Counted from the first letter of the stretch, positions 36,818 to 56,666 are shown. The stretch is 64,000 nt of DNA from an uncultured Actinomycetota bacterium (GCA_963783835.1 CAWAOX010000018.1:152435-216434), one strand, 5' to 3'. The notes: a model not told the origin generated them from the letters alone. Translations and numbers: made by a program.

Positions 36818-37672
36818 ATGAAACTCTATGTTCTCGACTGCGGCCAGCTCTGGACGGAGGAGGGGTTCCTCAAGCATTTTGGTACCCAGGAGCTCACCGG
36901 GAAACCATACGAGGCCGGAGCCTTCGGTATCAGAAGCTGCCAGTACTTCATTGATCATCCGAAGGCCAAGATCGTCTTCGATCTTGGCTATACTCTCGAC
37001 GACTTTCGTGGGTTCGTCGGATTCCCCCTTCGCAAAGGTCCGGAGGGCACCCACTTCAAGCAGGCCCCCGACCAGAACCCGCTAGCCCAACTGGCCAAGA
37101 TCGGGGTCAAGCCGGACGACATCGACTACGTCGTAATCTCGCACCTAATGAGCGAGCACGCCGGGTACCTGCCCGAGTTCGCGGGGACCAAGGCGAAGAT
37201 CGTTGTGCAGGAGGACGAGCAGGAGTATGCGAGTCGGATAGGAGTGCCACCGAGACCGGGGGATGAGCCGGCGGTTGAGCAGTTCCATACCTGGATGTAC
37301 CTGCGCAAGCTCTATGAGGTGCCCGGTCTCGATTTCATGTACATCAAAGGCGACTACGAACTGGTGGGCAGAGACGTCGAGATCATTTCGCTCCCCGGGC
37401 ATACCCCGGGATTCCAGAACATGATGGTACGCCTGCCGAAGACCGGCCCCGTGTTCCTGTCCGCCTGCGAAACCAGAGGCATGTACTACGACGTTCCCGT
37501 CAACGGCTACGCCCCGGGTATCCCGCACGCATTCACCTGGTCGGCAGCCGGGGAACTGCAAAGCTTCAAGAGAGTCCGGGGGCTGGTCGAGAAGGAGGAG
37601 GGGCAAATCTTCTTCGGTCACGATTTGGAACAGTTCCTAACCCTCAAGGCGGCGCCCGGGTACTACGACTGA
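36818..37672 (+). CDS. MBL-fold-like metallo-hydrolase with variant motif (ISHLMSEH instead of HxHxDH), paralog A
   Basis: ATG after AAGGGGG. ...VISHLMSEHAGY...SLPGHTPGF...FFGHD. About 80% identical to the product of 49533..50386. Confidence 0.65.
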   Translation: MKLYVLDCGQLWTEEGFLKHFGTQELTGKPYEAGAFGIRSCQYFIDHPKAKIVFDLGYTLDDFRGFVGFPLRKGPEGTHFKQAPDQNPLAQLAKIGVKPDDIDYVVISHLMSEHAGYLPEFAGTKAKIVVQEDEQEYASRIGVPPRPGDEPAVEQFHTWMYLRKLYEVPGLDFMYIKGDYELVGRDVEIISLPGHTPGFQNMMVRLPKTGPVFLSACETRGMYYDVPVNGYAPGIPHAFTWSAAGELQSFKRVRGLVEKEEGQIFFGHDLEQFLTLKAAPGYYD

Positions 37673-37822
37673 GCGTGGCATCGGGTGAGCGAAGTGGGGT
37701 TGGGGGAATGAGCAAGACGAGGGAAGGGAGAACAAGGGTGAGTCCCGGTCAGATGCGAAGCTGTCAATACGCCAGGAGTTTCCCGTGCCTGGCTATCGAC
37801 GAACGGGTGCCCTGAGAGGAGA

Positions 37823-38236
37823 GTGCACGTGAAGAAGAAGACCTATCCACTCTTCTACGGGGGTCAGAAACAAAAGTTCGCCCGATCAGTGGTCGTGGGT
37901 GATCTGGTATTCCTCTCAGGGATGAGCGGCCGCACCATGGAGACCGGTGATGTTTCATCCGACGACGTCAAGGAGCAGATGCTAGTCGCCTTGGATAAAG
38001 TCCGCGCCGCTCTTGAGGAAGCGGGGAGCTCGATGGATCACATTGTCAAGACCGTGATCTACCTCAAGGATGTCAAGGATTACGAGCTAATGCGGGCGAC
38101 TGAGTCCGAGTACTACCACAAGTACGCTCCCGGACTTGTCGAGGAGCCACCGGCCAGCACCTTCATACAACCCGCCTCGCTCGCGCGGGCGAGCATGCTG
38201 GTAGAGATCGACGTAGTCGCCTGTTTGAAGGATTGA
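37823..38236 (+). CDS. RidA/YjgF/TdcF-family reactive-intermediate deaminase, copy 1
   Basis: …VVVGDLVFLSGMSG…HIVKTVIYLKDVKDYE…EIDVVA. Confidence 0.75.
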   Translation: MHVKKKTYPLFYGGQKQKFARSVVVGDLVFLSGMSGRTMETGDVSSDDVKEQMLVALDKVRAALEEAGSSMDHIVKTVIYLKDVKDYELMRATESEYYHKYAPGLVEEPPASTFIQPASLARASMLVEIDVVACLKD

Positions 38237-38679
38237 AGGCGGGATACACGAGAAAGATAACAAAGCACCCTGCGCGCTACCCGACAAAGGTGCGTTTTAG
38301 CCGATCAGCGGTGGTCGGTAACTACGTGTTTGTCTCTGGCTGCAGCGGACAGACCCTCGAGACGTTCCACGCGGATTCAGATGACGTGGAGGCGCAAACG
38401 GAGGTCGCCCTCGACAAGGTCAGAGCGGCCATCGAGGAAGCCGGGTCTTCCATGGAGAATCTGGTCAAAGTCATCGTCTACTTGACGAGTGCGGAAGATA
38501 GGCGCCGCGTAGAGGGCCGGATCGATGACTACTACTACAAGTATGCGCCTCGCCTGATAAAGGAGCGGCCAGCCGAGACTGTCGTGTGCGTTGCTGGGTT
38601 ACATGAAGCGGATCTTCTCGTTGAGATAGATAGCATCGCCGTGATTCCGGACAGCGAAGGTCAGGATGAGTGCTTTTAG
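38233..38679 (+). CDS. RidA/YjgF-family protein, copy 2 (TTG start overlapping upstream stop; start uncertain)
   Basis: …AVVGNYVFVSGCSGQT…NLVKVIVYLTSAED…EIDSIAV. Tandem paralog of the preceding gene. Confidence 0.7.
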   Translation: MKAGYTRKITKHPARYPTKVRFSRSAVVGNYVFVSGCSGQTLETFHADSDDVEAQTEVALDKVRAAIEEAGSSMENLVKVIVYLTSAEDRRRVEGRIDDYYYKYAPRLIKERPAETVVCVAGLHEADLLVEIDSIAVIPDSEGQDECF

Positions 38680-38851
38680 CGCTGAGACTGGGGCCAAAGA
38701 GAGATGTCGTGGAGGCGAGGACGTAACATGACCCCGGAGATTCTCCGGTCTGCATGTCGACCAGCAAGCGCGACGGCGTTGGTCGAAAAAAGACTGCAGC
38801 GTAACATAACGGAGAAACGGCGTCGAAGCTGAACAGGAAAGTGGGTCGTAA

Positions 38852-39610
38852 GTGATACAGAGTCTGGTCAAAGGCTTGGCAGTTCTATCGCTCTTTGACA
38901 AAGTCCACCCCGAGTGGACCTTGGATGAGATCGCTGAAGCAGTGGGGGTTCCGAGAATGACTGCCTATCGTCTTGCAAAGACGATGGAGGGGGTCGGCTA
39001 TCTCGTCTCGGATCATGGCAACAGATATCACCTTGGTCCGGCGGTCCTTGCCTCTACCTGTGCGTGCGTCGATCGCTACGCGGGCCTGGTAAAGGTAGCC
39101 CGGCCATATCTCGAAGAACTTGCAGCGGTGACCCAAGAAACTGTGACTTTTGCGATGGAGATTGATGGGGTACCGGTCGAGGTCGACGAAATCCTTACCT
39201 CGCGGCCTTTCGCTCGTCCGCATGCCATCGGGCGGATTTTCGGTCACACCAATACCGCTCATGGCAAGGTGTTCATGGCAAGCAAGTCCCCAGCGGAGCG
39301 GCAAGAGATCCAGTTTGAGGTGAGCACGGCGCACTCTATTGCCGATAAGCAGGCCTTATCAGCCGAACTGGAGCGGGTGGCACGAGATGGAATAGCGTAT
39401 AACTGCGAGGAGCGGGACATTGGGATCTGCGCCGTAGCTGCGCCGGTCCGGGATCAAGCTGGGCGAGTGGTCGCGTCCATCGCTGTGCTGGCTCCTCCCG
39501 GGAGGTTCAGGCCAATAATTGATAGGGAGGGGTTTGGGACTGCTGTCAAGTTGACGGCCGACGAGCTCTCCGCTTTCCTCGGCTACTTTGCGCCTGAGCG
39601 TATCGACTAG
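38852..39610 (+). CDS. IclR-family transcriptional regulator
   Basis: N-terminal wHTH (LVKGLAVLSLFDKVHPEWTLDEIAEAVGVPRMTAYRLAKTM) plus C-terminal effector domain. A 30-codon copy of its N-terminus recurs at 56667. Confidence 0.8.
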   Translation: MIQSLVKGLAVLSLFDKVHPEWTLDEIAEAVGVPRMTAYRLAKTMEGVGYLVSDHGNRYHLGPAVLASTCACVDRYAGLVKVARPYLEELAAVTQETVTFAMEIDGVPVEVDEILTSRPFARPHAIGRIFGHTNTAHGKVFMASKSPAERQEIQFEVSTAHSIADKQALSAELERVARDGIAYNCEERDIGICAVAAPVRDQAGRVVASIAVLAPPGRFRPIIDREGFGTAVKLTADELSAFLGYFAPERID

Positions 39611-40417
39611 GACGCGATGGCTAGGGATCAGAAGTCTTGAGTATTCATTCAATGATCATCGTTTGGGAAAACGTCTGAGCCAACGCTCTCTCCTTCAACG
39701 CTCCGGTAACCATGAATGCCCGGCGTTTCATTGCCCAGCCCTGCCTCCCCCGGCCTATCGGCCGTCTTTCGAGACGAGCCGTCCTTTGGTCTAGTTCGGT
39801 TCGGGAAGACCGATTGTCTCCCGCGTCGCGGGGACTTGAATGACGCCTCTGTTTCGCCTCAACAGGCCTATGTTTGCCTAAATCCACGTCTTTGAACGCC
39901 GCTCTACTGGCTTGCTGGCTTTCCAAGCTCGACCCGGCTCAGTCTAGTGCTTGTCTCTCGAGTACGCACATGAGTTTTCCGGTGGGTCACGTATCACGTC
40001 GCCGAGCGTCCAGAGACTGAATGTGGGGCCCGCGACGCGGCTGCTCGACTTGCCGGCGCAATCGGTCCGCAGTCAGCCGTCTCGAGCAGGAAGCAGCAAG
40101 TTCAATGAGACTCCCCTGGCGCCACCCTAACTGGCCAGCTCGCGCCGCCCTAAGCGGTCCTCCGTCTCATCCACTTTCACCTCTCCACAACGCAGGAGGT
40201 GGAAATGGTCAATCTGTTTCGTTCTACGATTAGCGAGTTGCCATAACATCTATTCCGTGACGGTGGAGACGCTATGAGCAATTCGTGCTGTGTTTCAAGC
40301 TTGACAAAGAGGGTTATCTGTAATAGATTTCGTTTCCTGCACGGTTTCGCTCGTCGATTGGGGATCACGGGTGAATCGACAGAAGGCACAGGGAAAAGCG
40401 CATGGAAGGGGGAGGCG

Positions 40418-41905
40418 ATGACTCACGATGACGAGCATCCGAAATCAGGGCGACCCGATTCCTTCGAGCCGGGAGCTTCGACGGTCAGCCGTCGCGATTT
40501 CCTTAGGATCGCGGGCCTATCCGGTGCCACGATCGCTCTCGGCGCAGGCTTGGGCGGGCTGCTGACCGCCTGCGGCGAAGAGGAAACCACCACCACCGCG
40601 GCGGAATCCACGACCACCACCGCAGGAAGCACCTCGACGTCGTCCGCGGCCAGCACCTCAACCTCGGTCTCGGCCAGCGAGGAAGTTGGAGCGGAAATCA
40701 AAATCGGTTTCGTCTCCCCCGCTACGGGGCCGCTCGCCAGCTTTGGGCTGAATGACGAGTACGCTGTTGACCGCTTCAGGGAATATGTCGGCGATGGTCT
40801 TGTTCTGGGAGACAACAAGAAGCACGAGATCACTGTAATCGTCCAAGACAGCCAGTCCGATTCCAACCGAGCATCGCAAGTGGCCGGGGACATAATAAAC
40901 AACAGCAAGCCGTCTATAATGGTGGTCGCCAGTACTCCGGACAGTGTTCTCCCCGTTTCCGTCCAATCCGAGGTGGGCAAGGTTCCCTGTTTTGGGACAG
41001 ACTGCCCCTGGCAGCCTTATTACTTCAATGGGCCGGAAGGCGGCTGGAACTACGCGCGTTGCTTGTTCTTCGGCATTGAGGACCTGGGCGCGTGCAATCA
41101 GGTAACCTGGAATCTGCTACCAACCAACAAGATCATCGGGACCATGTGGGCGAACGACGCCGATGGTAAGGCGTTCCAGGATGGAGTGACCGGAATGACA
41201 GCGGCCATGCTGCAGGCAGGGCTGACGGTCGTTGACCCCGGGCTATACCCGCCTGGCACTGAAGACTTCACTAGCCTGATTACTACCTTCAAGAAGACCG
41301 GCTGCGAAATAGTCTTTGGGAACTGTCCCCCGCCGGACCTTGTCAATTTCTGGAAGCAGTCGATACAGCAATCCTTCGTTCCGAAGATATGCACAGTCAA
41401 TAAGCCGCTCCTGTTCCCTGAGGACATGGAAGCGATCGGCGCCATTGGCACTAACATATGTTCGAACCTGTTGTGGTCGCCGCGGTGGCCGTACAAGTCC
41501 TACCTGACAGGGGAGAGCAACCAGCAATGGGCTGACGAGTTCACAAGAAGAACCGGAAAGCAATGGAGCGGCGCCCTCATGCACAGTGTCATCTTCGAGG
41601 CGGCGCTATGGACACTGAGGAACGCAGAAGACCCCACAAGCACTGAATCATGCCATGCTGCCGCCTCCAAGCTGAAGTTCGAGGGTATCGTGGGCCCCAT
41701 CGACTTCACGGAGCCAGTGGCAGCTTCCATAGAGCAGATCAAGCCGGGTCCCGGTCACCCACTGCCGACTGTCTACAAGACTCCGGTTCAGGAGGGCCAG
41801 TGGCAAACAGGCACGGGGCAGTACCCCTTCGAGATTCGCACCATAGAAAACAGCCTCCTACCCGAAGCACTCGTGGACGCGAAGATGCTGCCAATAACAG
41901 TCTGA
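40418..41905 (+). CDS. Orphan ABC substrate-binding lipoprotein, branched-chain-amino-acid (LivK/Peripla_BP_6) type, paralog A
   Basis: Tat-like SRRDFLRIAG plus lipobox LLTAC, a T/S/A linker, then IKIGFVSPATGPLASFG...SQSDSNRASQVAGDII. Confidence 0.75.
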   Translation: MTHDDEHPKSGRPDSFEPGASTVSRRDFLRIAGLSGATIALGAGLGGLLTACGEEETTTTAAESTTTTAGSTSTSSAASTSTSVSASEEVGAEIKIGFVSPATGPLASFGLNDEYAVDRFREYVGDGLVLGDNKKHEITVIVQDSQSDSNRASQVAGDIINNSKPSIMVVASTPDSVLPVSVQSEVGKVPCFGTDCPWQPYYFNGPEGGWNYARCLFFGIEDLGACNQVTWNLLPTNKIIGTMWANDADGKAFQDGVTGMTAAMLQAGLTVVDPGLYPPGTEDFTSLITTFKKTGCEIVFGNCPPPDLVNFWKQSIQQSFVPKICTVNKPLLFPEDMEAIGAIGTNICSNLLWSPRWPYKSYLTGESNQQWADEFTRRTGKQWSGALMHSVIFEAALWTLRNAEDPTSTESCHAAASKLKFEGIVGPIDFTEPVAASIEQIKPGPGHPLPTVYKTPVQEGQWQTGTGQYPFEIRTIENSLLPEALVDAKMLPITV

Positions 41906-42132
41906 CGTACGTACGATAGGACAGTGCCCCGGGCCAGGAAGCGACGCCTGGCCCGGGTTATTCGCGCCAAAGGGAGCTGCAGAATCTGCTCTCTTTGGGT
42001 TGTCATGATTGCTCCACTGAAGTTCAGGCATTTGGCGACCACAGCTGCCGGGAAGTCGGCTGTTAGTAGGCGTAATCCGTGAGGGTGGAGTTGTAGGCTG
42101 TTCGATCCGAGCCCCCGAAGGAGGTATGAGCG

Positions 42133-42852
42133 ATGGATGCCAAGCTGATTACGGAGTTGCTGAGAGATTATGAAGTAATCGACCTGTCGCACACTTTGGA
42201 GGAAGGCATCCCCACATACCCGAGACCAACGCCATATTCCCATAGTCTATTCGAGTCTTACTGGCATGGTGATCGTGCGTCCTCGTACGAGATTCTCATG
42301 AACGAGCATACCGGGACGCATATGGACGCGCCGGCTCATTTCATTCCGGAAGGTCCTGCTCACGTCTGGGTCGATGAGCTTCCCCCCACGTGTCTAATGG
42401 GCCGGGGGGTGATGATGGATGTGAGCGACACACCTCCGAAGACCGCATTCGGTCTGTCGGTACTCGAGAAATTCGAGCAGCAGCACGGCCCCATCAAAGA
42501 AGGCGACATCGTTTTGTTCCGTACCGGGTGGGACCGTAAGTGGAAATTGAAGCCGGATTTCGGGCCGTTTGTGCGCGATTGGCCGGGTCCCAGCGGCGAA
42601 GTCGCCCAGGCCCTGGTCCAACGTCGTGTCAAGGCGGTCGGCATTGACGTGACCGCGTTGGACACGTACGGCAACCCCGAACTGCCCTGCCACAACATTC
42701 TTCTCGGCAATGGAATACCCCTCATCGAGAACGTTGCCAACCTCGATCGACTGCCGCCCTTCAGCATCTTCATTGCGATGCCGCTCAAAATCAAATGGGG
42801 GTCTGGATCCCCACTTCGACCGCTTGCCTTCGTGCCCAAGGCTGCAGTTTGA
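42133..42852 (+). CDS. Cyclase-family protein (kynurenine formamidase / isatin hydrolase type), paralog A2
   Basis: HTGTHMDAPAHF...HNILLGNGIPLIEN. Confidence 0.75.
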   Translation: MDAKLITELLRDYEVIDLSHTLEEGIPTYPRPTPYSHSLFESYWHGDRASSYEILMNEHTGTHMDAPAHFIPEGPAHVWVDELPPTCLMGRGVMMDVSDTPPKTAFGLSVLEKFEQQHGPIKEGDIVLFRTGWDRKWKLKPDFGPFVRDWPGPSGEVAQALVQRRVKAVGIDVTALDTYGNPELPCHNILLGNGIPLIENVANLDRLPPFSIFIAMPLKIKWGSGSPLRPLAFVPKAAV

Positions 42853-42952
42853 CGTTCTTCAAGAACCGTAATCTCAGCACGTCGGCACGTCGTAACGCGA
42901 CCGGGCGAGTAGTTCATGTTCGTGACGAGAACAAAGGTTGGGAGCAAGAGCC

Positions 42953-43351
42953 ATGGTTGTGGGAATAACCCATGTGGGCGTCCGGGTCACCGACTTAGAG
43001 AAGTCGCTCGAGTTCTATCTTCGCATTCCGGATGTGCAAGAGGCGTTCAGGCTCTACTGGGACGATGGCAGCCTGATGATGGTCTGGCTCAAAGTCGCCC
43101 CCCGGCAGTTCCTGGAACTCTTTCCCGGAGGCAGCAAAGGTGCGCCGGCCGCTTCAGGATACTTCCATGTGTGCCTGCAGACAGACGATATCCACGAGCT
43201 TTATGACGAGTTGCTGAAAAGGGGAATCACTCCGAGGGGCCGTCCTGAGAAGCACGAGGACGACCATTCCTGGCAGTTCTGGATTGACGATCCGGAGGGC
43301 AACGCAATCGAGTTTCAGGAATTCACAGCTGACTCGTTGGAGCTGGAATAG
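42953..43351 (+). CDS. VOC-family (glyoxalase / extradiol-dioxygenase fold) protein
   Basis: ITHVGVRVTDLEKSLEFY...GYFHVCLQTDDIHELYDEL...EGNAIEFQE. Confidence 0.65.
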   Translation: MVVGITHVGVRVTDLEKSLEFYLRIPDVQEAFRLYWDDGSLMMVWLKVAPRQFLELFPGGSKGAPAASGYFHVCLQTDDIHELYDELLKRGITPRGRPEKHEDDHSWQFWIDDPEGNAIEFQEFTADSLELE

Positions 43352-43595
43352 GGTGGCCGGCATCTTTCTCCAGCGTGGCGAGACGAGGCCGGCTCCCGGC
43401 AGGGACGGGGACGTGTTGGGGGGGCCGATAACACGTCTGTCGCGCGGCCAGTCTTCGATGGGGGTTGGGGCATCCTTCAGGCTGTAGCAGATCTCTGTTG
43501 AGAGACGCGTTTGGAGTGAGGACCCATTAGCTCCCTTGGCACCAAAGAAGTGCTGGGAGCCCGGAAGGGCAGAGAGACATAGAAAAGGATTTCGC

Positions 43596-44390
43596 ATGAG
43601 GATCATTGACCCACATCTGCACGTTGATCGGATGAAAGGCAAGGACGTCGAGACCATGTCGGTAGCCGGGGTGGAGGGAGCAGTTCTGCCGACTCCTCAT
43701 CTTCTACAGTGGATGGTTTCGGCGGAGACATTATTCAGAATGTGGCGGATGTTCCTAGATTTCGAGGTCAAGCATTCGGAGTCACTCGGCGTCAAGGTGT
43801 TCGTGACCCTGGGCGTACCCTTCTACGGCTTGGACACAGAGTCCGTGGAGGAGGCACTGCGAAAGTTACCCGACTATCTCGATCATCCTTCGGTCGTCGG
43901 GCTGGGAGAGATTGGCATGGATGCCGGGATTGCAGACGAGGAGAGGCTGTTTCGTGCACAGCTAAACATCGCCAAAGAGCACAATAAGCCCGTGATCGTC
44001 CACACCCCCACTCCACTGGAACCTCAGGCGGCGGAGGTCTGTGGGCAGATAATCAAAGTCATTGAGAGCGAGCGCTTTCCCATGGATCGAGTGGTCCTAG
44101 ATCACACCGGCCGGAACAGTCTGAACGACCGCCTCAGCACCGGAGCTATGGTCGGTCTCAGCCTTTGCTACGACAAACTCCGCCCGGAAGATGCCGCCGA
44201 AATCGTGGCCGAGATGCCGGAACATCGCAACCAACTGCTCGTGAACTCGGAGTTCGGCTACGCGGGCGAGGGATACTTCTCGGTCCCCCGCTCCGTGCTA
44301 TCCATGCGTCGGTTGGGCCTGAGGCGCGACGTTATCGAGAGCGTCACTTGGGATAATCCAAAGAGGTTCTTCAACCTTCCAATTGACTAG
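43596..44390 (+). CDS. TatD-like metal-dependent hydrolase (amidohydrolase superfamily), paralog A
   Basis: IDPHLHVD (HxH)...GLGEIGMD...VIVHTP...DHTG. About 85% identical to 55789..56583. Confidence 0.7.
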   Translation: MRIIDPHLHVDRMKGKDVETMSVAGVEGAVLPTPHLLQWMVSAETLFRMWRMFLDFEVKHSESLGVKVFVTLGVPFYGLDTESVEEALRKLPDYLDHPSVVGLGEIGMDAGIADEERLFRAQLNIAKEHNKPVIVHTPTPLEPQAAEVCGQIIKVIESERFPMDRVVLDHTGRNSLNDRLSTGAMVGLSLCYDKLRPEDAAEIVAEMPEHRNQLLVNSEFGYAGEGYFSVPRSVLSMRRLGLRRDVIESVTWDNPKRFFNLPID

Positions 44391-44604
44391 CGCGCTCGAG
44401 TGGCGAAGGCTCCCGGCGAGCGAGGACGAGCATGGCGGCGAATGAAGAGTGAGTGGCCGTGGAGTCGATTGGCGAGTTGCAGCCGCGTAGGTACGCCATA
44501 AGGGAATTGTGAGAGACAGCCTTGACCTCGGGTGAGATGGGCCTTTGAACGCACCAGTGATGAAGCACTCGGTTGGGCAGGGTATCGGGAAAGAGGAGAG
44601 CAGT

Positions 44605-46725: not shown

Positions 46726-46830
46726 TCGATTACGCGCCTCACGTGGGACAGCCCGAAGAGGTTCTTCCACTTTGACATTGACCGAGTCATGCTCGGTCCG
46801 AACGTCCAGCATCGAAAGGCGGACGCATCG

Positions 46831-49056: not shown

Positions 49057-49069
49057 CAGGAGCAGCTCG

Positions 49070-49399
49070 ATGTCGAGAATGGCCTTGATGATAGATTACG
49101 AATTCTGCACCGGCTGCCACAGTTGTGAGGTCGCCTGCAAACAAGAGCATGGCTATCCCGTGGGAATCGGCGGTATTCACATGAACGAGGTAATGACGAC
49201 CAAGCCCGATGGTGAGCTGAGAATCGATTACCTGCCCTTTCCTACTATCTACTGCGATCTCTGCAGTGCTCGAACGGCCCAGGGCGAGGTTCCGGCGTGC
49301 GTGAAGCACTGCCAAACCGCAGTGATGAACTACGGCAGCACTGTTGAGTTGGCTCGACTGATGGAGGAGCGGAGTCACGCAGCCATGTTCACGCCGTAG
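49070..49399 (+). CDS. Small 4Fe-4S ferredoxin-like subunit (109 aa) of the molybdopterin enzyme
   Basis: CTGCHSCEVAC (CxxCxxCxxxC) plus YCDLCSARTAQGEVPACVKHC. Follows the alpha subunit after a 13-nt gap. Confidence 0.7.
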   Translation: MSRMALMIDYEFCTGCHSCEVACKQEHGYPVGIGGIHMNEVMTTKPDGELRIDYLPFPTIYCDLCSARTAQGEVPACVKHCQTAVMNYGSTVELARLMEERSHAAMFTP

Positions 49400-49532
49400 T
49401 CGGGTTCGTTAGACATGGCTGGAAGCGCGCGTGACGGCAGATAGCCGTGTGGCTTGGCGCTTCTGAAGAGAGCAGCGGCGCCCGAGCTGTGTCCTCCCAA
49501 TAGGGGTCGCCAGATGCAAGGAGGCAGATTAG

Positions 49533-50386
49533 GTGAAGCTATACGTCTTGAACGGCGGCCAGTTGTTCGTGGAAAAGGGCTTTTCTCGCACTTTGGCACG
49601 GCGGAGGACAATGACAAGGACTACGAGCCCGAGGCTCGCATTCTTCGCAGTCTCCAGTTCTACGTCGAGCACCCCGAGGCCAAGATTGTTTTCGAACTCG
49701 GGTACGACAACGATGACTTCAGCAAGTTTGAGGGGTTCCCGCATCGTCAGGGACCCGGAGGGATGTGGAGCCACCAGGAGCCGGATGAGAACCCGGTGGC
49801 CCAGTTGAAGCAGATCGGTGTCAAGCCAGAAGACATCGACTATGCAGTCGTGTCTCATCTCATGAGCGAGCATGTGGGCTACCTTCCGCACTTCGCGGGG
49901 ACGAAGGCGAAGATCGTTGTTCAGCAGGACGAACAGGAGTACGCGAGCCGGATAGGGGTCCCGCCGAGTCCGGGGGACGAGCCGGCGGTGGAGCAGTTCC
50001 ATTCCTGGATGTACCTTCGCAAACTCTACGAGGTGCCCGGCCTCAACTATATCTACATCACGGGTGACCACGAACTAGTAGGCAAGGATGTCGAGATTCT
50101 GTCACTACCAGCGCATACACCCGGATTTCCATACGTGATGGTGCGTCTGCCGAAGACCGGCCCCGTGTTCCTGTCCGCCTGTGAGACAAGGGGCATGTAC
50201 TACGACGTGCCGATCAACGGCTATGCCCCCGGAATACCGCATGCGTTCACGTGGTCCGCAGCCGGGGAGTTGCACAGCTTCAAGAGGGTGCGGGACCTTG
50301 TCGAGGGGGAGGAGGGACAGATCTTTTTCGGTCATGACCTGGAACAGTTCCTTACGTTGAAAGCGGCGCCCGAGTACTACGACTGA
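49533..50386 (+). CDS. MBL-fold-like metallo-hydrolase, paralog B; frameshift near 49580-49600
   Basis: MKLYVLNGGQLFVEKGF, then a frame shift to ...SHFGTAEDNDKDYEP...VVSHLMSEHVGY...LPAHTPGF...FFGHD (ORF 49454..50386 frame). Confidence 0.65.
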
Positions 50387-50458
50387 GCAGCGGATCAGGC
50401 TGCGCGAGGTGGCGTTGGGGGAATGAGCCAGAAGCTGGAAAGCAGAAAGGAGCGGCAA

Positions 50459-51949
50459 ATGAGCAGCGGGGGAAAAGAGCCGAAAGACCGAGAAGGCGCG
50501 ACCGGCGCAACGCCGGGACCCGTCATCAGCCGGAGGGAGTTCCTCAAGGTCGCGGGGATAGCTGGCGCCGCGATTGGTGTCGGCGCGGGGCTGGGCGGGT
50601 TGCTGGCCGCCTGCGGTAATGAGACGACCACCACGACCGGGGCGCCGACCACCGGGGCGCCGACCACCCAGGCGACCACGGCTACGACGGCGGCGGCCAG
50701 CACCACCACCGTCAGTGCTGCCGCCGAGATGGGCCGGGAGATTAAGATCGGTGTCGTGATGCCCAAGACCGGCCCGCTGGCGGCCTTCGGCCCGGCGGAC
50801 GAGTGGGGCGCCAGTCTGGCGTCCGAAGTGATAGGGGACGGGATGGTCCTTGGGGACGCCAAGAAGCACCCGGTCACCTTCGTGCTGAGAGACTGTCAAT
50901 CCGACTCCAACAGAGCCGCCCAGATAGCGGGCGATCTTATCCAGAACGACAAGGTGGACATACTCCTGGGCTCGGTGACTCCCGATGTCACAAACCCGGC
51001 TGCGGATCAGGCCGAGGCCATGGGGACGCCTTTCATGACCAGCTATGCTCCCTGGCAGGCGTTCATATTCGGGCGGGGCGCCGATCTGACCAAGACGTTC
51101 AAGTGGACGTATGCTCATTCGATGGGCACCGAGCAGATGGGCTATAGCATCATCGGGGCCGTAGATCAGATCCCCAACAACAAGATGGTCGCACTTATCA
51201 CCATGAACAACCCGGACGGCAATGCCTGGCTGGACGACAAATACGGCACCCCGGTGGCCTTGCGAAAGTACGGCTATGAACTGGCCGCCTCCACCCAGTT
51301 CAATCTAGGCTCCGAGGACTTCACCAAGGAGATCGCCACTTTCAAGAAGGCGGGCGTCGACGTGCTGATCGCCGCAATGCAACCGCCGGATTTCACCAAT
51401 TTCTGGAAGCAATCGATGCAGCAGGGGTTCACTCCTAAGATACCGAGCGGAGGGCTGGGCATCACGATGCCTCCGGGCGTGGCTGGCATCGGCCCGCAAG
51501 CAGTCGGCCTGATCATCGAGCACGGCTGGACTCGGGACTATCCCTACATCGATCCTCTCACCGGGATGAATTGCCCGCAGTTGGCGGCGAGATGGGAGAA
51601 GGACACCGGCCTCCAAGAGCAATTGTCCATCGGCTTCCTGGACAAGTTCGCGTGGACGGTAGATGTGCTCAAGCGCACCAAGAACCTGGACGACAAAGAG
51701 TCGATCGTCGAGGCCATCAAGACCACCAAGATGGACGGCATAACCGGTCCCATCGATTTCACTGCCCCGATCGACGCCGATCCAACTGCGACGGACAGCT
51801 TCCGGCCGCATCCGAACGTGTCCAAGCCCGTGTGGACCGGTGCGCAATGGATCAAAGGGACGACGTGGCCTATCGACGCGGTGACCGTGAATAACGTATT
51901 GGCTCCGGCGGTGCCGACGGTGCCGACAGTCCCGTACGTGTACGCATGA
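50459..51949 (+). CDS. Orphan ABC substrate-binding lipoprotein, branched-chain-amino-acid type, paralog B
   Basis: AAGGAG RBS. SRREFLKVAG plus lipobox LLAAC, a T/A linker, then IKIGVVMPKTGPLAAFG...CQSDSNRAAQIAGDLI. Confidence 0.75.
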   Translation: MSSGGKEPKDREGATGATPGPVISRREFLKVAGIAGAAIGVGAGLGGLLAACGNETTTTTGAPTTGAPTTQATTATTAAASTTTVSAAAEMGREIKIGVVMPKTGPLAAFGPADEWGASLASEVIGDGMVLGDAKKHPVTFVLRDCQSDSNRAAQIAGDLIQNDKVDILLGSVTPDVTNPAADQAEAMGTPFMTSYAPWQAFIFGRGADLTKTFKWTYAHSMGTEQMGYSIIGAVDQIPNNKMVALITMNNPDGNAWLDDKYGTPVALRKYGYELAASTQFNLGSEDFTKEIATFKKAGVDVLIAAMQPPDFTNFWKQSMQQGFTPKIPSGGLGITMPPGVAGIGPQAVGLIIEHGWTRDYPYIDPLTGMNCPQLAARWEKDTGLQEQLSIGFLDKFAWTVDVLKRTKNLDDKESIVEAIKTTKMDGITGPIDFTAPIDADPTATDSFRPHPNVSKPVWTGAQWIKGTTWPIDAVTVNNVLAPAVPTVPTVPYVYA

Positions 51950-52093
51950 AACTAGATAGGACCGGGTGCCGCCCAGCAGGTGCCCGGTCCCAGGCGCAAG
52001 GCAGGTAGTCGACCCCCTGTGTAGGGGCCGCCCCCAGTCCAGCGGGGCTGCGGGGCGGCCCAAGACATCCGAGAGCGGGTCACCGAAAGAAGG

Positions 52094-52981
52094 ATGGAGC
52101 GTATGCACCGAGTTCTCTTGCCCTTTGAGTTCGCCGAGCCCACGAGCGTGGCCGAGGTCATCGAACTCGTGGACGGCGAGAAGGCCAGACCGCTAGCCGG
52201 AGGCGTCGATCTTGTCCTCAAGATGCGGCTGCGCCAAGTCGTCCCGGAGAGGGTGGTCAGCCTGCAGAAAGTGCCCGGCCTGGACTACGTGCAGGCGGAT
52301 GGCTATACGCTCAGATTCGGCGCTCTAGCCACGCTCAGGCAGATTGAGCGGGCACCGGAGGTCAAGGACCGGTGGCCCCTCCTGGCCGAAGCCATCGGTT
52401 GCATCGTGTCCGTGCAGACCAAGGTGATGGGCACGGCGGTCGGCAACCTGTGTGTCGGCACCCCGGCGTCCGACGTGGCCCCGGCCCTCTACGCCCTCGG
52501 CGCCCGGGTGAAGATCGCCGGCAGGCAGGGGGTGCGGGAGATCCCCATCGAGGAGTTCTTCGTGGACGCCGGGAAGACCGCGGTCGGGCGTAACGAGATC
52601 GTGACAGAGATCGTGGTGCCGGTCCCGCCTTTGGGGAGCGCCGGCGCTTTCCTCAAGCTCTCCAAGACCTCCGAAGATATCGCCAAAGTGAACGCCGCCG
52701 TCATGGTGTCCGTTTCCGGCGACACCTGCACTTCGGCTCGGATCGCCCTTGGCTCGGTGGCGCCGACCCCGGTGAGGGCGGTGGAAGCGGAGCAAGTGCT
52801 GCAAGGACGGCCTTTGAGCGCGAAAGCTATCGCGGAGGCAGCCGAAGCGGCCTGCGAAGCGGTCGCTCCGATATCCGACGTGCGCTCCACCGCGGCCTAC
52901 CGCAACGAGATGGTGCGGGTGCTGGTCCGGGACGCGCTGGTCAGGGCGGTCTCGCGAGTCCCAGCTGCAAAGGAGGGATGA
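52094..52981 (+). CDS. Xanthine-dehydrogenase-family molybdoenzyme, FAD-binding medium subunit (CoxM-like)
   Basis: PCMH-type FAD domain (…ARPLAGGVDLVLKMRL…) with a CO-dehydrogenase-flavoprotein C-terminal domain. Translationally coupled to the next two genes. Confidence 0.75.
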   Translation: MERMHRVLLPFEFAEPTSVAEVIELVDGEKARPLAGGVDLVLKMRLRQVVPERVVSLQKVPGLDYVQADGYTLRFGALATLRQIERAPEVKDRWPLLAEAIGCIVSVQTKVMGTAVGNLCVGTPASDVAPALYALGARVKIAGRQGVREIPIEEFFVDAGKTAVGRNEIVTEIVVPVPPLGSAGAFLKLSKTSEDIAKVNAAVMVSVSGDTCTSARIALGSVAPTPVRAVEAEQVLQGRPLSAKAIAEAAEAACEAVAPISDVRSTAAYRNEMVRVLVRDALVRAVSRVPAAKEG

Positions 52982-53466
52982 TGGCCAAGGAGATAGCGAC
53001 CTTTCTCGTCAACGGCGGGGAGTACGAAGTCATCATCGAGCCCCACGTGCTCCTCATCGATGTGCTCCGGGACAAGCTCGGGCTCACCGGGACCAAATAC
53101 GCCTGCGGCGCCGGTGACTGCGGCGCCTGCACCGTCCTCATCGACGGCAGACCTTCGTTCTCGTGCCTCACGCTGGCGGTCACAGCCAAAGGCAAGAGCA
53201 TCTTTACCATCGAGGGCCTGGCGGAAGGAAATGAACTCCATCCTATCCAGCAGGCTTTCGTGGATAAGGGAGCCATCCAGTGTGGCTTCTGCACGCCGGG
53301 CATGATCCTCTCGGCCAAGGCGCTGCTGGATGAGAACCCCGAGCCCACCCGGGAGGAGATAAAGAGCGCTCTTGCCGGCAACCTATGCCGCTGCACCGGT
53401 TATGTGAAGATCCTGGACGCCGTTGAGTCTGCAGCCGCCGGCCTGAGGAACGGAGGGCAACGATGA
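52978..53466 (+). CDS. Xanthine-dehydrogenase-family [2Fe-2S] small subunit (CoxS-like)
   Basis: CGAGDCGACTV (plant-type 2Fe-2S) plus CGFCTPGM...CRCTGY (second cluster). Confidence 0.8.
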   Translation: MMAKEIATFLVNGGEYEVIIEPHVLLIDVLRDKLGLTGTKYACGAGDCGACTVLIDGRPSFSCLTLAVTAKGKSIFTIEGLAEGNELHPIQQAFVDKGAIQCGFCTPGMILSAKALLDENPEPTREEIKSALAGNLCRCTGYVKILDAVESAAAGLRNGGQR

Positions 53467-55775
53467 CCATGAATACGTTCTCCTGCGTCGGCAAGCCGCT
53501 TACCCGGCCAGATGTTGCTGCCAAGGCTACTGGTGCAGCCGAATACGGAGCCGACGTCACGCTTCCGGGCATGCTGATCGGCAGGATCCTCACTAGCCCA
53601 TACGCTCATGCCAACGTTGTCAAGATCGACACCTCGAGGGCGAGAGCTCTTCCCGGGGTGGCCGCGGTAATAACCCACGAAGACGTCCCCAAGAGAAGCT
53701 TCACCCGCTCGGTCATGGCCGAGGGCCTGCCCCCGTTCGCCTATGAGGGCGAGAATCAGGATCAGTACATCCTCTCCGACAAGGCCCGGTACGTCGGCGA
53801 CTGGATCGCCGCGGTGGCCGCCGTCGATGTGTACACGGCTGAGCGGGCCCTCGACCTCATCGAGGTCGAATACGAGCCGCTTCCCGCCGTCTTCGACCCG
53901 GCAGAAGCCCTCGAGCCGGGTGCTCCCACCGTCCACGAACGCTGGAGGGACAACGTCGCCGGGGTCATCGAGCACTCGTTCAACCGGGGCGACCTGGACA
54001 AGGCCTTGGCCGAGTCCGAATACGTGGTCGAGTTCTCCGGCCGCAATTCCCGGCAGAAACAGGCTCATATGGAGCCGGACGTGGCGGTAGCGCGCTGGGA
54101 CGAACGCGGCCGAGTGACGATCTGGTCGCCGAACCAGAACGCTCACCTCGCCAAGAGGACCATGGCACGGAGGATCTTCGGCATCGGCGAGGGGGACGTC
54201 CGCTGGATCACCACGACCGTGGGCGGAGGGTTCGGGGCTAGGCTCAGTCTTGGAGTCGAGCCGCTCGCCGCGCTACTCGCCAAGGTGACCGGCAAACCGG
54301 TGAAGGTGATCATCACCCGGGAAGAGGACTTCAGTGGCTGGAGCAGCCGTACGGAGCAGCGTCAGACCATCCGACTCGGCGTCACCAAAGATTGCATCAT
54401 CACAGCCATCGAGCAGAGGATCGTCTCCGACGCCGGCGCCTACTTCTCCCACAGCGGCACTATCAGTGCCGTCAACATGCAGGGGACGTTGGGAGTGATG
54501 CGTGCGCCCGTGATATACGGCAAGGCAACGATCGTCTACACCAACAACCCCACCTCGAGCGGCATGCGGGGATACGGCAACCCGGAGGGGTCCTTCATCC
54601 TGCAGCAGGCTATCGACATGGCCGCCGAGAAGTGCGGGATGGACCCCCTCGAGTTCCGCCTGAGGAACGCCAGGGGGGTGGGTGAGCCCAGCATGTGGGA
54701 GCCCCAGATCCTGACGAGTTGCGCTCTTCCTGAGTGCATCACCCGGGGCGCCGAGGCCATCGGCTGGAAGGACAAGTGGTTGGGGTGGGGCCGAAAGAAG
54801 GAGGGCCGCTACCGGCGCGGAGTGGGCATGTCCATCATGACCCACGCAAGCGGCGCGGGTGGCTTCCTCCTGGAACACTCGACCGCCTCCATCAAGTTGA
54901 ACGAGGACGGCTCGGCCCAGCTTGCGGTCAGCCCCTGTGAGATGGGCCAGGGCATCCTCGGCGCCCTCTCGCAGATCGCCGCCGAAGGGATGGGTCTCCG
55001 CTACGAAGACATCCACGTGGTGACCGGGGATACCGACGTCACTCTCTTCGATATCGGCACCCACGCCAGCCGCTCCACCTACGCCATCGGCAACGCCGTC
55101 CTCGACGCGGGTCGCCAGATCAAGGCCATCGTCCTCGAGCGGGCGGCCGCAAGGCTGGAGGCTGCGCCTGAAGCCCTCGACATCAGAGAAGGCCGAGTCT
55201 ACGCGAATGACGATGCCGCGAAAGGCCTGAGCGTGGCCGAGATAGCGAGCGAGGGCATCTACGACTACGGCTTAGACGCGCGGCACATCCAGGCGACCGG
55301 CAAGCACCAGAGCCTCACCCACTGCCCCAACTTCCAGGCGGGTTTTGCCGAGATCGAGGTCGATCTCGAGACCGGGGTGATAAAGGTGCTCAAGTTCGTG
55401 GTCGCCCACGACATCGGCCGGGCCATCAACCCGCTCACGGTGGAGTCCTGTCTTGAAGGGGGCGCCTATCAGGGCTTGGGCTATGCGTTGACCGAGGACC
55501 TCCTTATAGACGGCAAGACCGGCAAGGTGCTCACCGACAGCTTCGCGACCTACAAGATGCTCTCCACCCTGGATATGCCGCCAGTAGAAGTCATCCTCGT
55601 AGAAGAACCCGATCCGACCGGGCCCTTCGGAGCCAAGGGCGTGGGCGAGACCGGAATCACTAACGTGGCGCCCTCGATTGCGAACGCTCTGTACGACGCG
55701 GTCGGTGTACGGATCCATTCGCTTCCGATGACCCCAGAAAAGGTTCTGGAAGCGCTAAAGACGAAACAGGCTTAG
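53463..55775 (+). CDS. Xanthine-dehydrogenase-family molybdopterin-binding large subunit (CoxL-like, hydroxylase type)
   Basis: 770 aa with aldehyde-oxidase/XDH a/b-hammerhead and MoCo domains. GGGFGAR motif (hydroxylase-type rather than the CODH VAYRCSFR loop). Confidence 0.8.
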   Translation: MTMNTFSCVGKPLTRPDVAAKATGAAEYGADVTLPGMLIGRILTSPYAHANVVKIDTSRARALPGVAAVITHEDVPKRSFTRSVMAEGLPPFAYEGENQDQYILSDKARYVGDWIAAVAAVDVYTAERALDLIEVEYEPLPAVFDPAEALEPGAPTVHERWRDNVAGVIEHSFNRGDLDKALAESEYVVEFSGRNSRQKQAHMEPDVAVARWDERGRVTIWSPNQNAHLAKRTMARRIFGIGEGDVRWITTTVGGGFGARLSLGVEPLAALLAKVTGKPVKVIITREEDFSGWSSRTEQRQTIRLGVTKDCIITAIEQRIVSDAGAYFSHSGTISAVNMQGTLGVMRAPVIYGKATIVYTNNPTSSGMRGYGNPEGSFILQQAIDMAAEKCGMDPLEFRLRNARGVGEPSMWEPQILTSCALPECITRGAEAIGWKDKWLGWGRKKEGRYRRGVGMSIMTHASGAGGFLLEHSTASIKLNEDGSAQLAVSPCEMGQGILGALSQIAAEGMGLRYEDIHVVTGDTDVTLFDIGTHASRSTYAIGNAVLDAGRQIKAIVLERAAARLEAAPEALDIREGRVYANDDAAKGLSVAEIASEGIYDYGLDARHIQATGKHQSLTHCPNFQAGFAEIEVDLETGVIKVLKFVVAHDIGRAINPLTVESCLEGGAYQGLGYALTEDLLIDGKTGKVLTDSFATYKMLSTLDMPPVEVILVEEPDPTGPFGAKGVGETGITNVAPSIANALYDAVGVRIHSLPMTPEKVLEALKTKQA

Positions 55776-55788
55776 GAGAGGAGCTCTC

Positions 55789-56583
55789 ATGAGGATGATC
55801 GACCCCCATCTGCACTTGGACCGCATGAAGGGCAAAGACGTCGAGACCCTCTCTATCGCGGGAGTCGAGGCGGCGGTGCTGCCGACACCCCATCTTCTGC
55901 AGTGGATGGTCTCGGCGGAGACGCTCTTTCGGATGTGGCGCATGTTCTTGGACTTCGAGGTCAAGCACTCCGAATCGCTTGGTATCAAGGTCTTTGTGAC
56001 CCTGGGCGTCCCTTTCTACGGACTGGATACGGAATCCGTGGCCGAGGCCCTGGTCGAGCTGCCCAAGTATCTGAGCCATCCCTCCGTCGTGGGTCTCGGG
56101 GAGATAGGCATGGACGCCGGCATAGCCGACGAGGAGAAGATCTTCCGGAGACAACTGGCCATCGCCAAGGAGCATGACAAGCCAGTGATTGTGCACACCC
56201 CGACTCCGTTGGAGCCACAAGCCACGGACGTCTTCCGCCAAATAGTCAAAGTGGTCGAGAGCGAGCACTTCCCCATGGATCGGGTGGTATTCGATCACAC
56301 TGGGATCCAGACCCTGAAGGAACGCCTCAATACGGGAGCTATGGTCGGACTGAGCCTCTGCTACGACAAACTCCGGCCGGAAGACGCAGCCGAGGTGGTT
56401 GCCGAGTACGAGGATTACCGGCCACAACTGCTGGTCAATTCGGAATTCGGCTACAGCGGGGAAGGGTACTACTCGGTACCGCGGGCGGTGCTCTCTATGC
56501 GGAGACTGGGACTCAAGAGGGATGTCATCGAAGGCGTCACCTGGGATAACCCGCGTAGGTTCTTTGGTCTGAACGTGGATTAG
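55789..56583 (+). CDS. TatD-like metal-dependent hydrolase, paralog B
   Basis: AGGAGAGGAG RBS. MRMIDPHLHLDRMKGKDVETLSIAG..., about 85% identical to the paralog at 43596. Confidence 0.7.
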   Translation: MRMIDPHLHLDRMKGKDVETLSIAGVEAAVLPTPHLLQWMVSAETLFRMWRMFLDFEVKHSESLGIKVFVTLGVPFYGLDTESVAEALVELPKYLSHPSVVGLGEIGMDAGIADEEKIFRRQLAIAKEHDKPVIVHTPTPLEPQATDVFRQIVKVVESEHFPMDRVVFDHTGIQTLKERLNTGAMVGLSLCYDKLRPEDAAEVVAEYEDYRPQLLVNSEFGYSGEGYYSVPRAVLSMRRLGLKRDVIEGVTWDNPRRFFGLNVD

Positions 56584-56666
56584 GGACGGGAGGCCCTCCG
56601 CTGAGAGCTTGAGCGTGGTGGTGTACCATGACCGCGAATACGGATGAATCGAGAGTTGAGCTGTAG

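Follow-up and report, generated by a model that had tools for sequence, protein, structure and literature searches.

We here describe a cluster of genes for molybdenum enzymes and hydrolases in a contig of an uncultured Actinomycetota bacterium (GCA_963783835.1, CAWAOX010000018.1:152435-216434), of which a stretch of 64 kb, hereafter the window, was analysed as a whole and to which all coordinates refer. Genes were assigned from a listing of open reading frames (ORFs) together with Pfam scans, and those between 32.8 and 56.7 kb all run on the plus strand, with short spacers between them from HyuA to TatD-B. The series begins with HyuA (hydantoinase/oxoprolinase A, 32796-34890; Pfam Hydantoinase_A with its N and C domains and a frameshift near 34770) and HyuB (hydantoinase B, 34918-36774), the latter made up of three consecutive ORFs that cover positions 1-164, 172-368 and 404-519 of Pfam Hydantoinase_B. 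It continues with MBL-A, a clade-I hydrolase of the metallo-β-lactamase (MBL) fold with an HxMxEH motif (36818-37672, Lactamase_B), RidA1 (37823-38236) and RidA2 (38233-38679), both Ribonuc_L-PSP, the regulator IclR-A (38852-39610, HTH_IclR and IclR_C), the Peripla_BP_6 lipoprotein SBP-A (substrate-binding protein, 40415-41905), a cyclase-family hydrolase (PF04199, 42133-42852; Cyclase at 9e-39), a VOC/glyoxalase-fold protein (42938-43351, Glyoxalase) and TatD-A, an AF1765-like hydrolase of the amidohydrolase superfamily (43596-44390, TatD_DNase). Downstream of TatD-A lie an Fe-S flavoenzyme of the old yellow enzyme (OYE) or 2,4-dienoyl-CoA-reductase type, resembling 2-naphthoyl-CoA reductase (44605-46725, Oxidored_FMN and Pyr_redox_2), the catalytic subunit of a Mo/W-bis(pyranopterin guanine dinucleotide) enzyme (Mo-bisPGD), acetylene-hydratase-like by sequence (46831-49056; Molybdop_Fe4S4, Molybdopterin and Molydop_binding), and its ferredoxin-like 2x[4Fe-4S] partner of 109 aa (49070-49399, Fer4). 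The last group comprises MBL-B, which is chimeric and frameshifted (49533-50386; 5' third of clade II, 3' two-thirds of clade I), a second Peripla_BP_6 lipoprotein, SBP-B (50423-51949), CoxM-CoxS-CoxL (CoxMSL), a three-subunit molybdenum hydroxylase of the xanthine dehydrogenase (XDH) family (52094-55775), and TatD-B (55789-56583, TatD_DNase). As argued below, the region from 32.8 to 56.7 kb is probably a recombination mosaic of several old, diverged operon copies with unrelated additions, set in a chromosomal island of lower GC content.

A first-pass annotation of this DNA had read 36818-56583 as two paralogous modules of MBL, SBP, molybdoenzyme and TatD, and its gene content and order on the plus strand agree with the Pfam-based calls. 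It had also placed the Mo-bisPGD and OYE genes in a position equivalent to that of CoxMSL; these genes instead follow TatD-A, and no molybdoenzyme gene is found between MBL-A and TatD-A. Related loci, that is, contigs from metagenomes and metagenome-assembled genomes (MAGs), have in common one conserved operon with optional members, HyuA-HyuB-(RidA1)-MBL-(SBP)-CoxM-CoxS-CoxL-(RidA2)-TatD-(IclR), which is the building block of the locus. The order HyuA-HyuB-RidA1-MBL-CoxM-CoxS-CoxL is found in L092, L096 and L104 (with an isochorismatase gene next in L092), HyuB-MBL-SBP-CoxMSL in L088, MBL-SBP-CoxMSL-RidA2-TatD in L103, CoxL-TatD-IclR with an intact IclR in L085, L086 and L115, and CoxL-RidA-TatD-HyuA in L002, a Desulfatiglandales MAG; in L005 a full ABC transporter stands between RidA and TatD. 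Many metagenomes of sediment and groundwater contain the operon; a scan of genome contigs with the TatD alignment returned mostly generic TatD genes, the relevant loci being only L002-L005. The RidA that stands between HyuB and MBL in L092, L096 and L104 is 85-92% identical to RidA1, and for RidA2 the identity to the RidA between CoxL and TatD in L002, L005 and L103 is 68-78%. IclR-A is likewise close to the IclR behind TatD, with 80% identity in L085 and L086 and 74% in L115. Since RidA1, RidA2 and IclR thus recur in the operon elsewhere, they are regular members of it and not insertions, as which they had been annotated together with the cyclase and VOC genes; for the latter two, as for SBP-A and the OYE gene, no counterpart was found in the related loci fetched, and none of these loci has both molybdoenzyme types together. 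Literature searches returned no description of a HyuAB-RidA-MBL-XDH-TatD-IclR operon, and no exact match turned up for the sequences of TatD-B, SBP-B, MBL-A or the Mo-bisPGD protein. In L087, a single 441-aa ORF of three tandem RidA-like domains (4895-6220) lies directly upstream of an MBL homologue, with an MFS transporter gene next.

Comparison of the window with itself by BLASTN gave four collinear matches, namely the MBL genes (36940-37732 against 49654-50447, 77.4% nucleotide identity), the TatD genes (43504-44371 against 55695-56564, 74.6%), the start of IclR (38853-38924 against 56668-56739, 79%) and a short stretch of the SBP leaders (71%). In line with the first-pass annotation, the collinear similarity passes beyond single genes, from the MBL stop into the 5' end of SBP and from the 3' end of coxL into TatD, with unrelated DNA between. 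The protein identity of 80-85% that had been given for MBL, SBP and TatD holds for TatD (83%) but not for MBL (77%) or SBP (38.7%), and at such low identity SBP-A is not a duplicate of SBP-B. Synonymous divergence (dS) between the copies, calculated by the Nei-Gojobori method (NG86), amounts to 1.5 for MBL and 2.6 for TatD and is thus saturated, with ratios of nonsynonymous to synonymous divergence (dN/dS) of 0.05-0.10; the intact paralogues compared with their homologues give a dN/dS of 0.03-0.11, i.e. strong purifying selection, which in pairwise comparisons of this kind is a record of long-term selection and not of present function. In neighbour-joining trees TatD-A and TatD-B are not each other's closest relatives, being sisters in none of 300 bootstraps. 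TatD-B joins P0001 and P0002 (the L085 protein) with 99% bootstrap support and is 98% and 91% identical to them, as against 83% to TatD-A. The group of TatD-A consists of P0008 and, more loosely attached, P0003, P0006 and P0010 (a protein of a Burkholderiales MAG). P0323, encoded on the 12,934-nt JGI contig or contigs that also carry the clade-II MBL P0318, is 97% identical to TatD-A. MBL-A is 84% identical to the MBLs of L087, L088 and L089, and the best database match of MBL-B is a clade-II protein. The saturated dS and the failure of the TatD proteins to pair exclude both an assembly duplication, which is also precluded by differences at ~25% of nucleotides, and a recent local duplication. 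The copies probably either met in this locus through horizontal gene transfer and recombination or are paralogues of great age.

Six gene relics, two of them seen earlier and four added here, sit at the breakpoints, all on the plus strand and all scoring well above the maximum obtained from 500 shuffles. Behind MBL-A lies R1 (37683-37732), an SBP-B-type intergenic region with ribosome-binding site and the first ~8 codons, which matches 50398-50447 with 80% identity over 50 nt (score 30 versus a shuffle maximum of 20) and bears out the earlier claim of a relic of the SBP-B start. Directly before IclR-A are the last ~27 codons of a TatD gene (R2, 38681-38760), which match the 3' end of TatD-B at 56499-56579 (71% over 82 nt, 28 versus 15), and directly before TatD-A are the last ~27 codons of a coxL gene (R3, 43504-43589), which match 55695-55782 (67% over 88 nt, 26 versus 15) as well as the coxL 3' ends of L085 and L115. 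Behind TatD-B, where L085, L086 and L115 have an intact IclR, the first ~24 codons of an IclR gene are left (R4, 56663-56739), matching 38848-38924 with 78% identity over 77 nt (43 versus 17); the remnant had been annotated as one of 30 codons and is real, but its conserved part spans ~24-26, and an extension to residue 85 was rejected, as it would require gaps and reading through stop codons. Of a further TatD gene the last ~16 codons remain between the stop codon of the OYE gene and the start of the Mo-bisPGD gene (R5, 46736-46782); they read LTWDSPKRFFHFDID and match the 3' end of TatD-A (77% over 47 nt, 25 versus 18). R6, directly upstream of RidA1 (37750-37821), is probably the 3' end of a HyuB gene and matches that of L104 HyuB at 8125-8196 (68% over 73 nt, 23 versus 15). 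Searches behind TatD-A for a relic of IclR and ahead of MBL-B for one of HyuB found neither. Traces of four TatD genes are hence present in the window (TatD-A, TatD-B, R2 and R5), and the two extra 3' ends imply more than two source copies. The position of R1 behind MBL-A and of R3 before TatD-A furthermore implies that the A-side genes descend from complete CoxMSL-bearing operons, and only one copy still carries its XDH-type enzyme. Between R4 and IclR-A, dN is 0.14 and dS 1.2 over 25 codons, so the difference is mostly synonymous and coding-like. Most of the divergence therefore arose while both were genes, the truncations being comparatively recent, and this suggests that the IclR truncation came long after the copies had diverged.

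The B side is itself composite. Up to residue ~108, MBL-B is 88-93% identical to the second MBL clade (clade II; P0241 of a 725-kb contig, P0318, P0320 and P0322), to which P0321 also belongs, and only 55-62% to MBL-A, whereas from residue ~110 to 284 its identity to MBL-A is 82-92% and that to P0241 65-75%. By these identities MBL-B is chimeric within the gene and unites two MBL clades. It also carries a frameshift, a 1-nt deletion in a T-run near 49581, where the frame switch is seen in the translations and the N-terminus of P0241 gives the expected reading GFF(W/S)HFGT. Three further frameshifts are all in the Hyu genes, the other long genes being intact. The HyuA ORF ends at 34784, and homology to the C-terminus of HyuA in L092 and L104 goes on in another frame to ~34890 (frameshift at ~34770), and HyuB, a single intact frame in L092, is read in three frames with shifts at ~35435 and ~36040. 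The HyuA and HyuB homologues of L092, L096 and L104 are intact, and the left-hand operon remnant of the window looks decayed, its genes being real pseudogenes unless the frameshifts are sequencing errors. Sliding identity of L088 and L085 to the window reaches 95-98% over ~50.75-55.5 kb, the same range being obtained for the nucleotide identity of CoxMSL, and drops to 60-85% in MBL-B, the SBP leader, the coxL 3' end and most of TatD-B; the SBP-B protein is 92% identical to that of L088. Such a core between more divergent flanks indicates that SBP-CoxMSL was recently exchanged between lineages with different flanks.

The Mo-bisPGD subunit belongs to the DMSO-reductase superfamily (Molybdop_Fe4S4 4e-14, Molybdopterin 1.7e-32, Molydop_binding 2.5e-20), and its best match in the Protein Data Bank (PDB) is acetylene hydratase (2e7z, 1.5e-98, nearly full length), followed by thiosulfate/polysulfide reductase; no NCBIfam equivalog cutoff was reached. 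The HMMER alignment to 2e7z stops short of the N-terminal motif that contains the Asp, in acetylene hydratase a catalytic residue beside a cluster Cys and accompanied by a W-ligating Cys, and the N-terminal cluster motif is atypical with three Cys visible. The 109-aa partner has eight Cys in two cluster motifs and is conserved as a 2x[4Fe-4S] protein, a partner of 109-113 aa being kept in L109-L114. Homologues of the catalytic subunit with 70-75% identity are found mostly in Dehalococcoidia. In L109-L112 (71%) the pair occurs with aldehyde:ferredoxin oxidoreductase (AOR), TRAP transporter and beta-oxidation genes, in L114 (75%) it is flanked by a SOR/SNZ-family gene and a tetrapyrrole methylase with no Hyu, MBL or TatD homologue beside it, and in L113 (74%) the Mo-bisPGD gene comes immediately after a gene of the TatD family whose product has 49% identity to TatD-A. 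R5 accordingly shows that a TatD-Mo-bisPGD adjacency of the L113 type once existed in the window, where the OYE gene now abuts the TatD remnant. Since the pair occurs elsewhere without MBL or Hyu genes and brings a TatD relic of its own, it is an independent, TatD-linked cassette and as such a separate type of module, and did not enter a duplicated CoxMSL frame as a substitute. The OYE gene stands out by a GC3 of 0.87 against 0.63-0.72 for its neighbours. The OYE and FAD/NAD(P) domains of its product are present and its best PDB match is the 2-naphthoyl-CoA reductase NCR (6qkg, 1e-57), but no NCBIfam equivalog was reached and membership holds at the level of domains only, not of the substrate.

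The names that these genes would receive in routine annotation deserve some caution. CoxMSL has the architecture of a three-subunit XDH-family enzyme, with FAD_binding_5/CO_deh_flav_C, Fer2/Fer2_2 and Ald_Xan_dh_C/MoCoBD_1/MoCoBD_2 all well above gathering scores and with the motifs GGGFG and a C-terminal GVGETG, and the best PDB match of CoxL is 4-hydroxybenzoyl-CoA reductase (1rm6, 2e-105). It is not a CO dehydrogenase, as neither AYRCSFR (form I) nor AYRGAGR (form II) occurs in the 770-aa large subunit and the NCBIfam scores for CO dehydrogenase are far below their cutoffs. Assignment to 4-hydroxybenzoyl-CoA reductase was likewise rejected, with scores of 552 against a cutoff of 994-995 for TIGR03194 and of 119 against 404-405 for TIGR03195, the latter matched in two pieces only by a CoxM of 295 aa; nor is the cutoff for XdhA reached. 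For TatD-A and TatD-B, a TatD/YchF DNA exonuclease was discarded on a TIGR00010 score of 42 against a cutoff of 206. The AlphaFold2 model of TatD-B (pLDDT 93, pTM 0.91) finds its best fold match in AF1765 (3guw, uncharacterised), then in lactonases related to phosphotriesterase (PTE), TatD nucleases and dihydroorotase, and the metal ligands H7, H9, E105, H136, H170 and D193 are invariant in 15 sequences; as modelled, the TatD-like protein is a metal-dependent TIM barrel of the amidohydrolase superfamily. The MBL-fold protein resembles lactonases of N-acyl-homoserine lactones (AHL) and 4-pyridoxolactonase, but both copies have the motif SHLMSEHAG (HxMxEH) and not HxHxDH, and 68 of the 72 MBL homologues (P0241-P0312) have Met at the position of the second His. 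The pattern of the family, SHLMxEHxG, makes an altered metal site probable and the label of an AHL lactonase doubtful; the candidates AiiA, AttM and AhlS were dismissed for want of HxHxDH and for NCBIfam scores of 80-93 against cutoffs of 375-475. The labels 'TatD DNase', 'AHL lactonase' and 'CoxL' are almost certainly wrong for these genes.

As for function, relatives of HyuAB act as ATP-dependent lactam hydrolases or carboxylases, and RidA proteins as deaminases of enamines and imines. From sequence, the operon chemistry is most likely hydroxylation followed by hydrolytic opening of an N-heterocycle. The molybdoenzyme would hydroxylate an (N-hetero)aromatic ring with oxygen derived from water, the ring would then be opened hydrolytically by the TatD-like enzyme of the amidohydrolase superfamily, the MBL-fold enzyme and/or the ATP-dependent, lactamase-type HyuAB, and the RidA proteins would deaminate the enamine or imine products, with SBP taking up the substrate and IclR regulating the operon. 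The earlier suggestion that XDH-type and DMSO-reductase-type enzymes serve analogous steps is not demonstrated by the window itself but gains plausibility from related loci. In L089 an AthL-like Mo-bisPGD gene, i.e. one of the pyrogallol-transhydroxylase type, follows the clade-I MBL of a HyuB-RidA1-MBL series at a distance of 4 nt and fills the slot where L090-L092 have CoxM, and in L003 (Dehalococcoidales) and L004 (Chloroflexia) Mo-bisPGD genes of the AthL-like subfamily lie directly upstream of TatD-family genes, L004 continuing with Amidohydro_2, MBL and AOR genes. The association of the hydrolase set with either molybdoenzyme superfamily thus recurs. The L089 gene (1447-2819) changes reading frame after 2445, through a frameshift or an assembly error. 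We entertain tentatively, as a possibility with the odds against it, that the AF1765-like TatD, often with the HxMxEH MBL, RidA and HyuAB, forms a portable 'downstream kit', joined in sediment bacteria to interchangeable, O2-independent Mo/W hydroxylases from two unrelated superfamilies in the same operon slot, namely XDH-type CoxMSL and AthL-like or acetylene-hydratase-like bisPGD enzymes. If so, heterocyclic or phenolic compounds would be processed by a modular route, first hydroxylation and then hydrolysis, and the window would be a snapshot of such an exchange of cassettes. The presence of Mo-bisPGD in the XDH slot of L089 and beside TatD in three further loci (L003, L004, L113) offers a testable lead on common hydrolytic downstream steps.

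Returning to the origin of the locus, pieces of at least three, probably four, long-diverged operon copies or variants would have been joined at or beside conserved genes. One copy (49.5-56.6 kb) would have retained SBP-CoxMSL-TatD together with a chimeric, frameshifted MBL and a truncated IclR, and the others would persist as the intact MBL-A, RidA1, RidA2, IclR-A and TatD-A, the frameshifted HyuAB and the six relics. The block of SBP-A, cyclase and VOC and the OYE-type reductase would be additions from elsewhere, and the Mo-bisPGD and ferredoxin-like pair a separate TatD-linked cassette whose own TatD has been reduced to its last ~16 codons. The first-pass annotation had instead assumed a segmental duplication with exchange of the redox enzyme, i.e. 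that a module of MBL, SBP, molybdoenzyme and TatD was duplicated in place and that in one copy the XDH-type enzyme was then replaced by a Mo-bisPGD/OYE set performing the analogous step. Such an origin would account for the double occurrence of MBL and TatD in the same order and on the same strand and for the collinear nucleotide similarity that extends into flanking non-coding DNA, the SBP 5' and coxL 3' relics show that SBP-CoxMSL once existed on the A side as well, and the loci L089, L003, L004 and L113, in which Mo-bisPGD replaces or accompanies XDH-type genes beside MBL or TatD, lend the swap some credence. We nonetheless consider it quite improbable, since dS is saturated, TatD-A and TatD-B never pair and each has nearer relatives elsewhere, MBL-B derives from two clades, SBP-A is only 39% identical to SBP-B, and the two further TatD 3' relics require more than two sources. 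The slot supposed to have been replaced is moreover occupied by RidA, IclR, SBP-A, cyclase and VOC genes and no molybdoenzyme, and the Mo-bisPGD gene, an independent cassette, lies downstream of TatD-A with the relic of a different TatD gene.

It might also be argued that the mosaic was made by the assembler, the contig being a metagenomic chimera of several strains or operon variants joined at conserved stretches of MBL, TatD and other genes and the frameshifts being sequencing errors. The source is indeed a contig of an uncultivated organism, the crossover in MBL-B falls in the conserved SHLMSEH region, its frameshift is a 1-nt deletion in a T-run, and the identity to L088 and L085 changes abruptly along module B. 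We regard this as unlikely, given that the A and B copies are only ~75% identical and thus too divergent to mislead an assembler, that the breakpoints hold short diverged relics and not clean joins, and that the junction VOC-R3-TatD-A-OYE is reproduced at 99.95% in an independent Logan contig (L001, over 42674-44660) and also in two others. A misjoin of two parents likewise fits poorly with a 3' part of MBL-B that is 75-85% identical to the L088 MBL next to an SBP-CoxMSL that is 95-98% identical, and three of the four frameshifts cluster in HyuAB, other long genes being intact. Alternatively, everything from HyuA to TatD-B could be a functional super-operon for one pathway, in which both molybdoenzymes, MBLs and TatDs act on successive intermediates and the relics are harmless scars; the single strand and short spacers, the strong purifying selection on the intact paralogues (dN/dS 0.03-0.11) and the occurrence of TatD-family genes beside both Mo-enzyme families elsewhere would be in keeping with this. 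It is made rather improbable by the frameshifts in HyuA, HyuB and MBL-B, the destroyed IclR after TatD-B, a heterogeneous GC3 of 0.63-0.87 and the lack of any related locus that combines two molybdoenzyme types, and the selection seen in pairwise ratios is, as mentioned, a long-term one. A recombination mosaic of old operon copies is thus the explanation we favor, and its history can be reconstructed from the six relics, the intragenic chimera and the sharp identity breakpoints. Several points should be mentioned that weigh against it or against the function assigned. Confirmation by independent contigs covers only the stretch from cyclase through VOC, R3 and TatD-A to the 5' part of OYE, and the MBL-B crossover lies in the most conserved part of the gene, where both true recombination and metagenome misassembly are to be expected. 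Sequencing errors may account for the frameshifts, of which that in MBL-B lies in a T-run, and R6 is backed by a single comparator (L104), being insignificant against L092 or the window's own HyuB. The trees were built by neighbour-joining on 264 to 284 residues and leave TatD-A poorly resolved within its clade (34%). The functional model, finally, draws only on the families and the neighbours of the genes; RidA, HyuAB and the hydrolases would fit many substrates, and no family match of the proteins reaches an equivalog cutoff.

Upstream of ~23 kb are dnaB and a purine-biosynthesis operon with a GC content of 0.65-0.69, and at ~28.6 kb it falls from 0.67 to 0.57-0.63, the lower-GC region of ~28.6-59.9 kb being edged by an IS110 transposase fragment (28638-29096) and a C-terminal fragment of a Mu transposase (59447-59827). 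The GC drop together with transposase fragments at both edges indicates that the locus sits inside a chromosomal island. The ~3 kb after the IclR relic (56740-59960) hold no convincing genes, only an HTH-like ORF on the minus strand (58594-59016) and the Mu-transposase fragment, and are probably the remains of a mobile element that truncated IclR. Right after the island (59965-62154) come a gene of the tryptophanase/tyrosine-phenol-lyase type (Beta_elim_lyase, minus strand), a possible source of indole or phenol, and a divergent GntR/FCD regulator. The stretch 28600-62154 contains two Peripla_BP_6 binding proteins and no ABC permease or ATPase genes, L005 having a full transporter, and a third lipoprotein binding protein, SBP_bac_5, lies beyond the right edge (62264-64000) and runs off the end of the window, its leader and Thr-rich linker being common with SBP-B (62328-62525 against 50526-50711, 67%). 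A second cyclase-family gene is found at 29515-30186 on the minus strand; its protein is 37% identical to that of the cyclase gene at 42133-42852 (plus strand), and both genes have a common stretch of 39 nt with 90% identity (29635-29673 and 42691-42729). An M24 gene (creatinase/Xaa-Pro-peptidase-like) follows at 30300-31532. Farther upstream, the DnaB helicase gene (55-2604) is split by an intein with a LAGLIDADG homing-endonuclease domain, two purine genes appear to be fused (5605-7419 with GARS and AIR-carboxylase domains, purD-purE, and 19636-21519 with AIRS and formyltransferase domains, purM-purN), and a multihaem cytochrome c gene on the minus strand (14060-15376, NapC/NirT and c7-type domains) has an internal direct repeat of 171 nt (14193-14363 and 14397-14567, 71%).

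Among known systems, the closest parallels are the molybdenum-hydroxylase clusters for N-heterocycles, such as that for nicotinate fermentation in Eubacterium barkeri, with nicotinate dehydrogenase, 6-hydroxynicotinate reductase and enamidase, and the clusters for picolinate, nicotine and quinoline; the PDB entries 3hrd, 7dqx and 1t3q, used for this comparison with N-heterocycle hydroxylases, are among the structure hits of CoxMSL. Like these clusters, the locus combines a three-subunit XDH-family hydroxylase with hydrolases of the amidohydrolase superfamily and of other kinds, a flavoenzyme of the reductase type, RidA-type deaminases, a binding protein and a regulator encoded alongside, and the logic would likewise be hydroxylation next to N and then hydrolytic ring opening. 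The present locus differs in that no subunit reaches an equivalog cutoff and in that HyuAB is present, and to our knowledge neither the AF1765-like TatD nor the HxMxEH MBL subfamily is known from N-heterocycle pathways. The 4-hydroxybenzoyl-CoA reductase of Thauera aromatica (HcrABC, 1rm6) is the best structure match of CoxL and has the same subunit organisation, but CoxM with its 295 aa matches the HcrB model only in part, and no CoA-ligase or benzoyl-CoA pathway genes are found nearby. Acetylene hydratase of Pelobacter acetylenicus (2e7z) has the same three Pfam domains as the Mo-bisPGD subunit. That enzyme is, however, monomeric and non-redox, whereas the subunit of the window has a conserved 2x[4Fe-4S] small subunit as its partner, a pairing suggestive of electron transfer, and its relatives neighbour AOR, TRAP-transporter and beta-oxidation genes. 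Enzymes of the type of pyrogallol-phloroglucinol transhydroxylase or resorcinol hydroxylase (AthL-like, PF21423), which like the XDH-type enzymes hydroxylate aromatic rings without O2, are those that occupy the CoxM slot in L089 and precede TatD in L003 and L004; the Mo-bisPGD protein of the window is not one of them, having PF04879 rather than PF21423 and being 23% identical to the L004 enzyme.

The plasmid collection that was searched contains no MBL relatives, and the only TatD homologues it returned are of the EboB type, i.e. hydrolases of ebo clusters on Haloferax pHV3 and Streptomyces plasmids, 31-35% identical to TatD-A and TatD-B over their full length, the nearest (35%) lying in an ebo-like cluster of Haloferax volcanii pHV3 (L116, 238552-253316). 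Besides the low identity, their context of UbiA prenyltransferase, sugar-phosphate isomerases and inositol-phosphate synthase sets them apart. With regard to architecture, mosaic and duplicated catabolic modules are exemplified by plasmid pJP4, which carries two tfd chlorocatechol modules. There, as here, diverged copies of a catabolic module stand side by side, flanked by insertion sequence (IS) remnants and with truncated genes at the joins. In the window, however, the copies reside on the chromosome of an uncultivated bacterium, the relics allow at least three source copies to be traced, and one gene, MBL-B, is chimeric within itself. We consider it probable that the locus is a mosaic, molybdenum-hydroxylase-based catabolic island of a kind already known, and that the operon from which it is built, HyuAB-RidA-MBL(HxMxEH)-XDH-type hydroxylase-TatD(AF1765-like)-IclR, is defined here as an uncharacterised one that is widespread in environmental contigs.

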